A stretch of DNA of 64,000 nt from a virus. Positions 3,611-33,735 of this stretch are shown one piece after another (position 1 is the stretch's first letter; each line of letters opens with the position of its first letter). Both the position numbers and the translations under genes were made by a program. The stretch covers positions 64,001 to 128,000 of the IMG/VR virus record IMGVR_UViG_3300005676_000020; one strand, 5' to 3'. The notes under the pieces were generated by a model that searched no databases, was not told the DNA's origin, and worked only from the letters and a program-made list of their open reading frames with translations.

Positions 3611-4471
3611 TTACTGAACTTTAGGGACCACTTCCTGGTCTCCCCATAATAATCTTTTAACTTTAGCCCCTTCACGGTAGTAGTTCCAAGCCTTAAGTAC
3701 AAGGGCGTACTTTTCGGCACTTCCTACCTTCTTCTCTTTCATGTTTATCAACCTTTGTCTCAGAACATAGATGGGACTGTCCACGTCATGGGAGATTCCT
3801 TCTCCGCCAGACAGTTTTTCCATGAAGTCAAAGGCCATCTGCCGGTTTTTCCTTGCAAACAGATATGCAAGACCCGCGTAGGTAGATGGAGAGAAGAATC
3901 GGGCTTTCAGATAGCACCTGGAGCCAAGGTCAACGCACTCTTCCATCAGAGACATACTGTGGGTATTTTCCCATTCGGCAATGTCTGTGTTGGTAACCAT
4001 CTTGTTTTTGCTGTAGTTACCGTGTGAAGAGCCCAATGCTTTGCGTTCATAAAGCAGAACCAGCCTCATAGCTCCGGCAATGACGCCGGCGTTTTTGTGC
4101 CCTTTAATGGACATGATGTCGGTTGCTCTCCTGTTAGAACCAGTGTCGATGACCGTAAATACTTCGGGGTCGAGGCCGGTAACTACCATCATTTTCTGCC
4201 TGGTATCTGACTCAATAATAGCTTCAAGCCGGTGCTGACCGTCTAGGAGTTCTCCTGTTCTGGAGAATCTGATACTGTCGCCGCTGTACTTAAACTCCCC
4301 TCTTTTCATCTGCTCTACCAGGTTCTGCAGGTTGGCTCTTTTGATAGCTCTGTTCTTGGTATTATACTGTAACATCTCCTTGGCAATGTGCGGGGTGATA
4401 GTTACTTCCTGGTAAACCTTTCTCGCTTTAAAGTCGCTTTTGATTTCGTCAAAGAATGACATGTTAATCAA
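3611..4471 (-). CDS. ParB/Srx-like DGQHR-motif protein
   Basis: NRAIK...LLDGQHRLEAI...VIDTGSNR matches a common phage ParB-N-like family. Confidence 0.75.
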   Translation of the reverse strand: MINMSFFDEIKSDFKARKVYQEVTITPHIAKEMLQYNTKNRAIKRANLQNLVEQMKRGEFKYSGDSIRFSRTGELLDGQHRLEAIIESDTRQKMMVVTGLDPEVFTVIDTGSNRRATDIMSIKGHKNAGVIAGAMRLVLLYERKALGSSHGNYSKNKMVTNTDIAEWENTHSMSLMEECVDLGSRCYLKARFFSPSTYAGLAYLFARKNRQMAFDFMEKLSGGEGISHDVDSPIYVLRQRLINMKEKKVGSAEKYALVLKAWNYYREGAKVKRLLWGDQEVVPKVQ

Positions 4472-5925
4472 TTTTGATTGTTAATAAAGATTTTCTTTCG
4501 GCTTTTCAAGAGATTTGAGAACCTCCCTCCTGGTTTTCCACCACCTTGGTATTTGAGAGGTCCTACTACAGGTACTCCGTCGGTTGACCTGATTATTTCG
4601 GACATGTATATCTTCATTCCCCTTTCAGTCTCGAAGTTCACTATTAGAACTTCGGTCCTTTCCAACTTCTCCACGTCTTTCATTGTGGAGACCTCGTCCT
4701 TATGCGCTTCTCTCTTCCAGGCTTCTGTAGCAGTTGCGATGGCAAGCACCTGTAAGTCCTGTCCCTGAAGCTCGTCAATGATTTTTGGGATAATGGTATC
4801 GAACAGTACATCTTTTGAGTCACGACTTACCAGAAATTCACCTATCGGCGCAAGGGCTATTTTCACCGAATCATCTGAAGGGTCTTTCAGAAGGATAGTC
4901 ATTTCGCCATGGCAGCCGTGGATATCGTTAAAGCTCTTTTCGGCGATTCCAGTAACTAACCTTTCGAAAAGTTCGATTACTTCAGTTTCCTCTTTTGGAG
5001 TACTTACCTTCTTATTCGCAAGCTCCATTCCCAACTTATCAATCCTTTGCTGGATGTCTTTTTCTATATTCATTGTAGTAGAATTTGTAATTTTCCCTTA
5101 GTTTTTGAAGTGTAATATCGTGGAAGCCGCAGAGGAACGCCTCCATTCCAGTGACCGGTCCGAGTTGTTTGGCAAAGCCAAATACGGGATGAGGAATGTC
5201 TATCTTTCCTTCAATGTATATTCTTTGTCGGTGACCGGCTCTACCTGCAAGATAGACAAGGTTTTCATTCAGCGTCTCTACGGGACCAAAACTTAGAGCG
5301 GCTTCATACAAATCTTCAAAGATATCCTGATTTTCGGGTTCAATCATTTCGGCAAGGAGGGCACCATAGCTTTCTCTATCGGCTATTATCATAGTACTTT
5401 ACTGCATTTTCAAAGGTGATTGCCCGTATAGGCTTAAATTTTATTCCTTCACCATCCCACTCGACACCGTCGTAAAAACCGTCCGAGTCCCGGTATATAA
5501 TGTTTCTTCCTTTAAGGTCTATTTTTAGTATCTTCTCAAGGTCTAAAAGTACGTTTTCCATGTTGTTTGTCAACGACCTGGCGTTAGGGTCGTTTGCGGA
5601 ATTGTCTTGAAGTACTAACATCCCGTAATGAAAGAAGAAGTTATAGTTACTCTTCAACATGCTCTTTGATTTTTTCTTTTACGATGAATGTGGGAACTTC
5701 GTCATCCCCGAACATTACTAGGTAAGCTTCGTTGTCGCCGACTTTAAGACTTCCAACTACCTTGCCTTTAGACCCAACCGGGTGGAAATCTCCTTCATCT
5801 CCAAAAGTTTTTACACATGTTGCCCCTAGTGGAATCTCACAATTAGGATCCCCTTCCAGCATCAGCTCTATAAGCGCTGCAGAGTCTTCGTCGAGCTGGT
5901 TATACCCTACTTTAAGATTGCTCAT
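4468..5925 (-). CDS. Four hypothetical proteins (4468-5073, 5039-5392, 5376-5660, 5647-5925)
   Basis: Abutting or overlapping ATG-started ORFs on the coding strand. Confidence 0.55.
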
Positions 5926-22270: not shown

Positions 22271-22299
22271 GACGAAAGTGTTTAGTGGTTGATTTTATG

Positions 22300-22371
22300 T
22301 TCTGCAGGTAGGAGTCGAACCTACAACCTCCCAGATAAAAGCTAGGGCTCTACCAATTGAGCTACTGCAGA
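22300..22371 (-). tRNA. tRNA-Lys(UUU), no encoded CCA
   Basis: Cloverleaf: acceptor TCTGCAG/CTGCAGA, D-arm GCTC-AATTGGTA-GAGC, anticodon arm CCTAG-CTTTTAT-CTGGG, T-arm GTAGG-TTCGACT-CCTAC. Confidence 0.9.
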
Positions 22372-29215: not shown

Positions 29216-30015
29216 TCATATGGAAGAAGAAACTATCATTAGTATGGCCACAATACATAGAAGTATGGTATTACGACACGCCTGTAGCTCAATAAGGCGC
29301 TTTTCTTTGCTGTATTTTGTCAGTGGCTTCATAGCCCAGGCATCTAGCCAGAAGCCAGCCATGACCAAAAGAAGGCCTCCTGGGAACATTGTAAGCCACA
29401 AGGTATTCCCAATTAGCTCCTCCATGAAGCCGTTCAACCGGGCTATTGCTGCTATGATGACAGTCAAGCCTAAAATAGCTAATACGTATTTCATATCAGT
29501 TTAGTTTTGAAAGGTGATTTACGATGATATAGATAGCCTCAAGCAGGGTGCTGGCCCCAGATACTATCATGATGACAGCATGTACCATTGGATATTCCTT
29601 GGTTACGTCAACACTTATTATGCCTTCCAGCAGTAATAGTATGGAAGCAATAACAAATATCGCCATAAGGGCGATAAGAATAAAAGCTACAGCAGGGTGC
29701 ATAATAGAAGATTTACTAATGAGCTGGTAGTTACTATTATCACGAAGAGGTCTTGCCCCTCCGGCAGGGAATATCCTGGGCGGCTTACTACTTCACAGCA
29801 TCCTGTCGATACCAGCACCATTGCCGCGTGAATGTATACCATTTCTATCATTTTCTTAAACCTATTAGCAGTGACACACCAAGGCCTATAGCGATAAAGG
29901 CCGGGAATATGGCGATGAGCAGCTGTGGAACTGTCTTGGCTATAGGCACAAACATTGCCCCGAGCATGGCTCCTATTACTATCATCGACCAGGCGCAGAA
30001 TCTTATTGTTTTCAT
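29216..30015 (-). CDS. Cluster of small membrane proteins (29216-29494, 29496-29702, ~29848-30015)
   Basis: Each has 2-3 hydrophobic helices; the third reads MKTIRFCAWSMIVIGAMLG...LLIGLRK. Confidence 0.55.
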
Positions 30016-32908: not shown

Positions 32909-33253
32909 TTATGAAATACAACACTTTTTAAACTTCTTTCCGCTGCCGCAGGGGCAAGGCTCATTTCTGCCTGGTTCTTTTTCTACTCGTATTGGATGTA
33001 CAGGTCGATGGCCTTTTTTGAGTATATATGCACATTCACTTCTCAGTTTTTCTATACGGCCATCCTGTATAGATTTCTCCAGGTTATCCAGGGTAGTGCT
33101 GGCAATATATTTTACGTTGCCATTTTTATCATCAGCAATAATGGTTACTTCTTTTTTGCCTTTGTAGTTGCCATACCATTCTTTCAGGCTGGCAATATTG
33201 CTGAGCAGCTCTTGATTTGTAACTCCGATTACTTTGATAGTTGGTGTTTGCAT
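32909..33253 (-). CDS. SEC-C motif protein
   Basis: C-terminal [19 protein letters not shown]. Confidence 0.8.
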
Positions 33254-33299: not shown

Positions 33300-33594
33300 T
33301 TCCGAAGTCATTTAAGGGGTATATCTAGCCCAGATGTACCACTGTATCCGGATACAATGGATAATCTATGAGCTACAGCTGCATCAGGAGTTGATTGACT
33401 GTGGCTTACACAGCTATCAATAAGGTCTGCCTATACGACTTAGGTGTGCTGTTACGCCAAAGTAGTACTATCTTCAGGTAGCATAGTACACGAGCTGCTG
33501 AAGTCAGCTTTTCCGGGTGTTTCCCTACGCCTAAGCGAAAAGGTTACACTCTTTAGATGATGGCTGCTTCCAAGCCTACATTCCGGTCATATAG
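33300..33594 (-). ncRNA. Structured ncRNA containing a 23S rRNA L11-binding domain (H43-H44) mimic
   Basis: GGAATGTAGGCTTGGAAGCAGCCATCATCTAAAGAGT [90 nt] GCGTAACAGCACACC, closed by the helix CTATATGAC/GTCGTATAG. Further hairpins follow downstream and the region has no ORF. Confidence 0.75.
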
Positions 33595-33735
33595 AATAGC
33601 CATATAGATCGCGGAAAAATTTGTTTAATCGGCAAATATTTATTGACTATCGATAAATCAGCTGTGTTGTACACATCAACTGAAATCCACACAACTGCAA
33701 CAAAATCAACAAGTTATGCTGTTTATCCAGTCACA

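Follow-up and report, generated by a model that had tools for sequence, protein, structure and literature searches.

A widespread, structured phage RNA built like the GTPase-associated centre of 23S rRNA

The RNA gene and its match to 23S rRNA

The window analysed here is a stretch of 64,000 nucleotides, bases 64001-128000 of virus record IMGVR_UViG_3300005676_000020, which measures 142,129 bp and is rated complete by CheckV. Its minus strand harbours, in a gene-free gap of 482 nt between an upstream open reading frame (ORF) of 91 aa (34011-33736) and a downstream ORF of 114 aa (33253-32909), a gene for a non-coding RNA (ncRNA) whose two ends rebuild the GTPase-associated centre (GAC) of 23S rRNA. 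The parts of this RNA are listed below; positions are those of the window, rRNA positions follow the E. coli numbering, and H42, H43 and H44 denote helices of 23S rRNA.

33594-33431, minus strand: ncRNA gene of ~164 nt, the two ends rebuilding the GAC of 23S rRNA
33586..33594, minus strand: 5' strand of the closing helix, CUAUAUGAC, pairing 9/9 (one G-U) with 33439-33431
33548..33587, minus strand: 5' core block, 23S 1051-1090, recognised by an Rfam large-subunit rRNA (LSU) match, an nhmmer profile and alignment to genuine 23S
33581-33557, minus strand: H43 hairpin with the 1067 loop, inside the 5' core block; G1067 at 33571
33556-33552, minus strand: mini-hairpin 1082-1086, inside the 5' core block; C.A in this copy
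within 33548..33587, minus strand: junction pair bases G1054/G1055 and the 5' strand of H44 (G1087-U1090), in the 5' core block
33458..33547, minus strand: insert of 90 nt separating 1090 from 1091; base helix of 3 bp (GUA/UAC), U-rich linker at its 3' end
33489-33465, minus strand: insert hairpin GUACUAU(11 nt)AUAGUAC, from folding prediction
33461-33458, minus strand: U-rich linker UUUG, a family feature at the 3' end of the insert
33440..33457, minus strand: 3' core block, 23S 1091-1108, upper H44 including the 1095 loop; A1095 at 33453, also C1097
33431..33439, minus strand: 3' strand of the closing helix, GUCGUAUAG, complementary to 33594-33586 and preceded by three unpaired bases UAA (33442-33440)

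Alignment to genuine 23S sequences (an E. coli-like fragment, L043, a Paenibacillus fragment, L055, and 26 Bacteroidota copies) placed minus-strand bases 33587-33548 at 1051-1090 and 33457-33440 at 1091-1108, i.e. at the top of H42 together with H43 and H44. The 5' block is identical to the E. coli-like 23S at 35/40 positions and the 3' block at 15/18, and most of the changes (A1054G+U1105C, U1061A, A1067G, U1082C, A1089G, A1090U+U1101A, U1097C) are compensated. The original prediction, made by a model from the letters of the window, had assigned 33584-33548 to 1054-1090 and 33457-33443 to 1091-1105; both strings are indeed present on the minus strand and agree with genuine 23S, and the compensated pairs it had pointed out, G1054-C1105 and U1090-A1101, are real in the alignment with the E. 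coli-like sequence. It had also described the 1067 and 1095 loops as preserved; the 1067 loop, with its G at 33571, is not fully so.

The two blocks were also found by nhmmer profiles built from 71 other members of the RNA family described below, the window being left out. The 5'-block profile gave a sole significant match in the 64 kb at 33585-33548 (E 7e-14) and the 3'-block profile a sole significant match at 33462-33442 (E 1e-6), on the same strand and 85 nt apart. The family 3' consensus GCGUAAnAGCACAC is matched 14/14 by 33457-33444, with A1101 (33447) pairing to U1090 (33548), C1102 to G1087, and C1104/C1105 to G1055/G1054. All helices of the 5' block pair in this copy except 1082-1086, which is C.A, as in 6/72 members. 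The bacterial LSU model of Rfam (RF02541) aligned 33583-33535 to the H43 region with 15 bits (E 0.015), below the gathering score of 50, the alignment being restricted to model positions 1096-1145 and not bridging the insert. At gathering thresholds Rfam reported a tRNA alone in the whole window, and at E <= 10 over the 421-nt region around the RNA it reported this partial LSU match alone; by ARAGORN and Rfam the RNA is not a tRNA. A blastn search of the 421-nt region against GenBank phages returned nothing, and cultured carriers of the RNA surfaced only when a 43-nt core was used as the query.

Outside 1051-1108 nothing resembles rRNA: phage ORFs and unrelated sequence lie on either side, as had been predicted. 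The domain is closed by a 9-bp helix foreign to rRNA (33594-33586 with 33439-33431), again as originally proposed, the 5' strand of which stands where the lower part of H42 would be, its final two bases being the equivalents of 1051 and 1052. In this copy the closing region is irregular, the in-register pairs being only G1054-C1105 and G1055-C1104, followed by a 1x3 internal loop (C / UAA) and then the 9 bp. A direct repeat, CUAUAUG x2, is located at 33588-33608 on the minus strand, and either copy of it could pair with the 3' closing strand.

A family of phage RNAs

Sequence-pattern searches uncovered a large family with variable insertions of 29-355 nt at 1090/1091, and a covariance model showed strong covariation; both kinds of check had been suggested along with the original prediction. 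The design is shared by ~90 contigs, viral or metagenome-binned, and by five phages in culture, namely pf16 and UNO-G1W1 of Pseudomonas, 4_4572 of Aeromonas and the jumbo phages XacN1 and XaC1 of Xanthomonas; neither these five nor any other record opened annotates the RNA. A search with a 19-base H43 pattern gave 51 viral contigs, only one of which contained real rRNA. The pattern of the 3' half, which real rRNA does not match, occurred at 112 places in prokaryote assemblies, with the full 5' half upstream in 42; the carriers are mostly contigs of metagenome-assembled genomes (MAGs) labelled as Bacteroidota, Bacillota, Pseudomonadota, Chloroflexota, Actinomycetota, Nitrospirota and others. 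The family ranges over viral contigs of 4-435 kb and MAG contigs assigned to at least 8 phyla.

The split separates 1090 from 1091 in all members. The 75 distinct inserts (median length 134 nt) are unrelated in sequence, yet in 69/75 the 5' strand pairs, through a base helix of at least 3 bp, with the bases just before a YUUUG/A linker. This linker abuts G1091 and reads CUUUG in 33 inserts and UUUUG in 17, the remaining ones having other YUUUG/A forms. Judged from sequence, base helix and linker have the geometry of a putative three-way junction which would leave H44 coaxial. Position 1101 is A in 68/72 cores, where it pairs with U1090, and is U in every genuine rRNA examined; U1101 occurs together with U1090 in the Rfam bacterial LSU consensus and in 28/29 genuine 23S copies (the E. 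coli-like copy has A1090). The sequence of the closing helix differs in almost every member.

A tRNA gene on the same strand lies within 300 nt in 52/92 loci, often only 3-20 nt off, which makes this neighbourhood frequent without being defining, and implies that the RNA is expressed and processed as a stable RNA. No protein gene is shared among the neighbourhoods, the largest cluster comprising 9/91 loci, mostly of near-identical genomes.

Some members deserve separate mention. The most compact one is L078:3123-3225. In pf16 (KU873925) the RNA is found at ~29,400-29,610, with tRNA-Asn and tRNA-Pro as its neighbours on the two sides. In XacN1 (L240, AP018399) the RNA follows directly on a gene with the annotation 2'-5' RNA ligase. 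Contig L098, binned as Candidatus Limenecus, has the mimic twice (3991-4349 and 5199-5391), ~1 kb apart. The isolate Flintibacter muris DSM 110149 (L210, C4:81111-81304) has a mimic scoring 98.2 bits on a 196-kb contig, its own 23S centre scoring 42.7 bits; this copy is probably part of a prophage or phage-plasmid akin to viral contigs L003/L037. Paenibacillus phage Pd_22F (L055, MZ092003) contains, at ~83,976-84,016, a genuine uninterrupted 23S fragment within a 1.7-kb unannotated stretch near the end of the record; it is no member of the family and is likely to be an artefact of assembly or host DNA.

Rfam 15 has no entry for such a family; in the Rfam scan that had been suggested as a check, a partial LSU match below the gathering score was the only one in the region of the RNA. 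No description of the family was found in the full text of PMC and bioRxiv, a search that did not cover subscription-only papers, so that an earlier description is possible. Within these limits the family appears new to the literature and to Rfam.

Covariation and base conservation

The covariance model (R1) was built on a seed of 17 members, including the window copy, with the structure supplied from the rRNA fold. The window copy scored 100.8 bits (E 1.7e-23) and aligned end to end (33595-33432), which, as it belongs to the seed, is partly so by construction. Non-seed members aligned at full length scored 59-105 bits, a few long-insert members, aligned in part, ~30-58 bits, and genuine rRNA 53-58 bits. 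On 78 aligned matches, 90.7% of the pairing cells were filled by pairs against 71.0% in shuffles, and 17/20 pairs showed changes on both sides. The covariation score was 0.462, compared with 0.131 after shuffling (0/500 shuffles reached the observed value) and at most 0.117 with slid partners.

Base counts were taken from a gap-free two-block alignment of 72 distinct cores. Across the relatives, pairs 1051-1108, 1052-1107 and 1053-1106 take all four Watson-Crick types; pair 1058-1080 is U-A in 45, G-C in 16, A-U in 6 and C-G in 3 cores, pair 1057-1081 is A-U in 65 and C-G in 5, and pair 1082-1086 is U-A in 33, C-G in 27, A-U in 5 and C.A in 6. Every pair of the upper H43 stem shows single double-changes. 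Pairing between the CUUUG linker and UAAAG (1083-1087) was considered as well and is unsupported, no compensating change being seen where 1086 is U.

The bases that hold the tertiary fold together are near-invariant: U1060-A1088 (71/72), U1066, G1071, C1072, A1077, A1085, G1093.A1098, U1094 and A1095. An A-minor triple, G1055=C1104/A1085, has been reported for rRNA (PMC1919483), and the family keeps it, with G-C in 69/72 and A1085 in 72/72 cores. The invariance of 1062-1081 and 1091-1095 is partly a matter of ascertainment, each search pattern having fixed one block; the complementary set, free at the pattern-fixed positions, gives the same picture of conservation. Variable positions are 1056, 1061, 1067 (A 59/G 13), 1068-1070 (rarely), 1096 (A 53/G 18/U 1) and 1097 (any base). 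On the ribosome, the exposed tips 1067, 1096 and 1097 meet factors, tRNA and thiopeptides.

Taken together, these data show a selected, structured, free-standing and widespread phage RNA, which, to judge from its sequence, has the secondary structure and the tertiary-contact bases of the GAC. That it looks like a selected mimic and not a captured fragment had been said in the original prediction, and this is borne out by the absence of rRNA flanks, A1101, the YUUUG linker, the fixed split point and covariation over ~75 distinct relatives.

The insert

In the 90-nt insert of the window copy, only the GUACUAU/AUAGUAC hairpin is predicted with a probability above 0.9 (p 0.92-0.95). Another of the helices originally proposed, CUUUUC/GAAAAG, is disfavoured (probability <= 0.01), and most of those proposed helices are likewise without support. 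Compared with shuffled sequences, the folding energy carries no signal (z = -0.64 for the whole RNA, -0.6 for the insert). No homologue of the insert was found; the nearest core (L002, a 141-kb contig) contains an unrelated insert of 40 nt, and no close relatives of the phage could be called upon for comparison, the upstream ORF being without relatives.

Some other inserts have features of their own. A sarcin-ricin-loop-like sequence, AGUACGAGAGGA, is present at insert position 224 of a long member (L035:2366-2750, minus strand), weaker matches of this kind occur in three to four other inserts (L085, L107, L112, L020), and none was found in the insert of the window with up to 3 mismatches allowed. 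Since their inserts contain such a sequence, some members may imitate both halves of the factor-binding site. A conserved module CCCC-N5-6-GGUAAGG is found in 19/75 distinct inserts, almost always 15 nt from the 3' end of the insert, the window not being among them; carriers include L005, L009, L036, L039, L052, L054, L056, L060, L062, L063, L094, L124, L130 and L165. In the insert of pf16, a GGUAAGG copy matched the pattern at a different offset, and an Rfam scan of the pf16 copy found nothing in its insert.

Genome setting and comparison with host rRNA

The genome, that of a crAss-like phage, encodes a terminase, a portal, a major head protein and a DNA polymerase; a search of it with the release-factor (GGQ) domain model PF00472 gave nothing at E <= 0.01. 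As the portal is 22-30% identical to those of crAss-like phages of Bacteroides, Cellulophaga and Flavobacterium, the host is likely a member of the Bacteroidota. The RNA is present in a single copy, ~3 kb into the leftward arm of a divergent gene arrangement with a strand switch near 36.4 kb, and its surroundings consist of small ORFs, including a DnaA-C helix-turn-helix protein and a Mu Gam homologue. The 91-aa ORF upstream (34011-33736) could be assigned to no family. The 114-aa ORF (32909-33253, minus strand), at a distance of 178 nt downstream, has a SEC-C metal-binding motif at its C-terminus (PF02810, E 1e-10); the final 20-30 residues, with this motif, are common to small ORFs in 38 viral contigs, none of which has the RNA. 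The only tRNA of the genome, tRNA-Lys(UUU) at 22299-22371 (minus strand), lies 11 kb away, and there is no same-strand tRNA array beside this RNA. Scanning of the minus strand beside the RNA revealed neither a sigma-70-like promoter nor an intrinsic terminator, and early expression is a guess from position. Upstream of the RNA, at 33659-33697 on the minus strand, a hairpin of 9 bp (CAGUUGUGU...ACACAGCUG) followed by AUUUAU might terminate the transcript of the upstream gene.

Position 1067, at which A is usually described as universal, is G in the window copy, together with C1097, and the same pair of states was found in 12/26 Bacteroidota 23S copies sampled from 24 genomes (L211-L238). In the sampled rRNA G1067 is always accompanied by C1097; within the phage family, by contrast, the two positions are uncoupled (Fisher p = 0.35), and the match to a Bacteroidota host, drawn from sequence, may therefore be taken as a hint only. 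In the Bacteroidota lineage itself, the G1067+C1097 state may have a bearing on how sensitive the ribosome is to thiopeptides. Of the 26 Bacteroidota 23S copies, 24 have one base more in 1077-1081 (AUUCAU). Because the window copy is without this base and has the A1101 of the family, it is not a recent capture from such Bacteroidota rRNA.

Possible function

It seems possible that the RNA is a stable, trans-acting ncRNA which acts off the ribosome as an imitation of a binding site, uL11 being the likeliest partner; we would give this reading, which draws on sequence comparison, a probability of roughly 40%. As sequence and covariation show, the two ends of the RNA fold into a self-closed copy of the 58-nt GAC domain, and the 90-nt insert branches off from the H44 internal loop by way of a three-way junction. 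Most relatives would be co-transcribed with tRNA arrays and then cut out, whereas here the RNA would be cut from the transcript of small genes of unassigned function. Away from the ribosome it would present the folded domain to a protein recognising that fold, most likely host uL11, the C-terminal domain of which binds exactly this fold. Titration of free or exchangeable uL11 would then yield uL11-poor ribosomes, with blunted activation of RelA and altered behaviour of release factors, elongation still being usable; ribosomes of relC/L11-deficient cells do translate, fail to activate RelA and show altered release-factor behaviour. The pattern of conservation is better suited to a protein that reads the fold, for instance the C-terminal domain of uL11, than to one that reads A1067, because the bases of the fold are kept and there is more freedom at the tips touched by factors and thiopeptides. 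No L11 homologue is encoded in the genome, and the only match to the L12 family stays below threshold (12.9 bits); since, in addition, no protein gene is shared near the RNA, the partner is probably a host protein. Binding of the uL10 stalk base, which had been considered in the original prediction, is unlikely, for the H42-equivalent helix lacks conserved sequence and the uL10 site is therefore not copied.

Several points weigh against this proposal. All members are known as sequences only. The place of uL11 is on assembled ribosomes, so that only an abundant decoy, able to compete with 23S rRNA, would be effective, and the helix exiting between 1090 and 1091 would have to clear the surface of uL11. 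The full conservation of G1093-A1095 and A1098, although partly due to ascertainment, suggests selection beyond the site of the uL11 C-terminal domain, and the sarcin-ricin-loop-like hairpin in the insert of a few relatives (L035) points to a partner that reads the whole factor-binding site. Finally, the window copy itself has an irregular closing helix and C.A at 1082-1086.

Among the other explanations, the main rival is that the RNA serves as a target-site decoy, a free copy of the GAC offered to a toxin or anti-phage enzyme which modifies or cuts this site during abortive infection; it would be the rRNA counterpart, by analogy, of the protection that phage tRNAs give against tRNA-targeting defences. 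We regard this as unlikely, yet as an explanation to be reckoned with. A1095 and A1098 are invariant, and the sarcin-ricin-loop-like hairpin of some relatives corresponds to a second classic toxin target. The habitat of the family, phage tRNA genes, is reminiscent of counter-defence cargo. So is the tRNA-Lys(UUU) of this phage, its only tRNA, with respect to systems that cleave tRNA-Lys, this tRNA being a known target of several defences. We know of no anti-phage system directed at H43/H44, and literature searches found none. Enzymes against exactly this site do exist: the Rhs toxin Tre23 ADP-ribosylates H44 of 23S rRNA at ~1095-1098, blocking the GTPase of EF-G (PMC8661411). Positions 1096 and 1097, within the stretch targeted by Tre23, are freely variable, however, and a free RNA only competes and replaces no damaged ribosome, which makes it a weak defence against an enzyme that turns over. 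The RNA might instead be a decoy or platform for whatever docks at the factor-binding site (a translational GTPase, an enzyme of the RelA/RSH type or a phage protein), the insert adding contacts. EF-G, EF-Tu, IF2 and RF3 do, after all, naturally dock on this domain, which together with uL11 is needed for the activation of RelA, and a few members (L035) have sarcin-ricin-loop-like hairpins in their inserts. This is nevertheless improbable: A1067, contacted by EF-G and the tRNA elbow, is G in 13/72 members including the window copy, 1068-1070 vary too, the inserts are unrelated across the family, no phage protein co-occurs with the RNA, and sequestration of EF-G or EF-Tu would harm the phage's own translation.

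A function in cis, as a leader or processing element of the neighbouring transcript, or the role of a mere stabilising cap for a functional insert, has very little to recommend it. Mimicry of rRNA in mRNA leaders is well known for uL1 and L10(L12)4 (PMC10931766), and a small gene (33253-32909) does lie 178 nt downstream; across the family, however, what follows the RNA is in most cases a tRNA and in no case a conserved protein gene, no ribosomal-protein gene is nearby, uL11 is not known as an autogenous repressor, and the part that is not conserved is the insert, not the core. Hardly credible is the notion that we are dealing with a captured piece of 23S that has no function, a host rRNA gene interrupted by an intervening sequence or a chimeric assembly. 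It is true that the two blocks are highly identical to rRNA and that genuine 23S fragments occur in some phage records (L043, L055). Nothing rRNA-like is present outside 1051-1108, though, phage genes lie on both sides, the RNA has A1101 for U and is without the extra 1077-1081 base seen in 24/26 Bacteroidota copies, ~75 distinct sequences of unrelated phages, with covarying helices, have the split point, linker and signature in common, and genuine rRNA reaches 53-58 bits on the family model, the window copy 100.8.

In broader terms, it is an even bet that large phages with hosts of many phyla deploy a dedicated RNA decoy of a ribosomal site which captures either uL11 or a site-directed host enzyme, thereby reprogramming or protecting translation. 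Such a decoy could silence RelA-dependent alarmone signalling or blunt a ribosome-directed effector of abortive infection. If this is true, such RNAs would form a new class of anti-host RNA in phages, and for the first time a functional centre of rRNA would be seen to have a natural mimic that acts in trans; phages would manipulate the ribosome not only by proteins and tRNAs but also by a stand-alone copy of one of its RNA active sites. It would also offer a route to how phages handle the stringent response and ribosome-directed immunity, and to the role of uL11 outside the ribosome. The family is a natural experiment on which nucleotides of the GAC are needed for the fold and which only on the ribosome, and the RNA is compact enough for direct biochemistry.

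Comparison with known systems

The closest likeness is to the GAC of 23S rRNA itself (E. coli 1051-1108, the 58-nt fragment that binds uL11 and thiostrepton), with which the phage RNA shares secondary structure, junction triples and loop sequences. It differs in being free-standing, phage-encoded, closed by a helix of its own and devoid of the rest of the rRNA, as well as in the split at 1090/1091 by a 90-nt insert with a U-rich linker, the A1101-U1090 pair and the freer tips 1067, 1096 and 1097. To our knowledge, no phage-encoded copy of an rRNA centre has been known before.

Off-ribosome copies of the rRNA site of a ribosomal protein are otherwise met in ribosomal-protein leaders, which mimic the uL1 site in the case of rplKA and the L10(L12)4 site in the case of rplJL (PMC10931766). 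Those leaders, however, are cis-acting parts of host mRNA and loose mimics, whereas the phage RNA is a near-exact copy of a tertiary domain and adjoins no ribosomal-protein gene. The locus does not lie in the 5' untranslated region of a ribosomal-protein operon; its neighbours are the 91-aa and 114-aa ORFs, and the genome has no L11 or L12 gene. We know of no mRNA leader that binds uL11.

With phage tRNAs and other small stable RNAs most relatives share their habitat (same strand, 3-20 nt) and probably also expression and processing. Like phage tRNAs, the RNA is a copy of a host translation component; unlike them, it is no substitute for the part that it copies, and the window copy lies 11 kb from the sole tRNA. 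Ribosomal proteins are known from phage genomes as well, among them bL12, which is in contact with uL11 (PMC6375957).

The logic of titration proposed here would be the same as that of decoy RNAs such as 6S RNA, the CsrB/RsmZ sponges and phage RNA anti-CRISPRs. In that group, 6S RNA imitates open promoter DNA and phage RNA anti-CRISPRs imitate CRISPR repeats; in the case of the RNA described here, the imitated ligand would, by analogy, be an rRNA domain.

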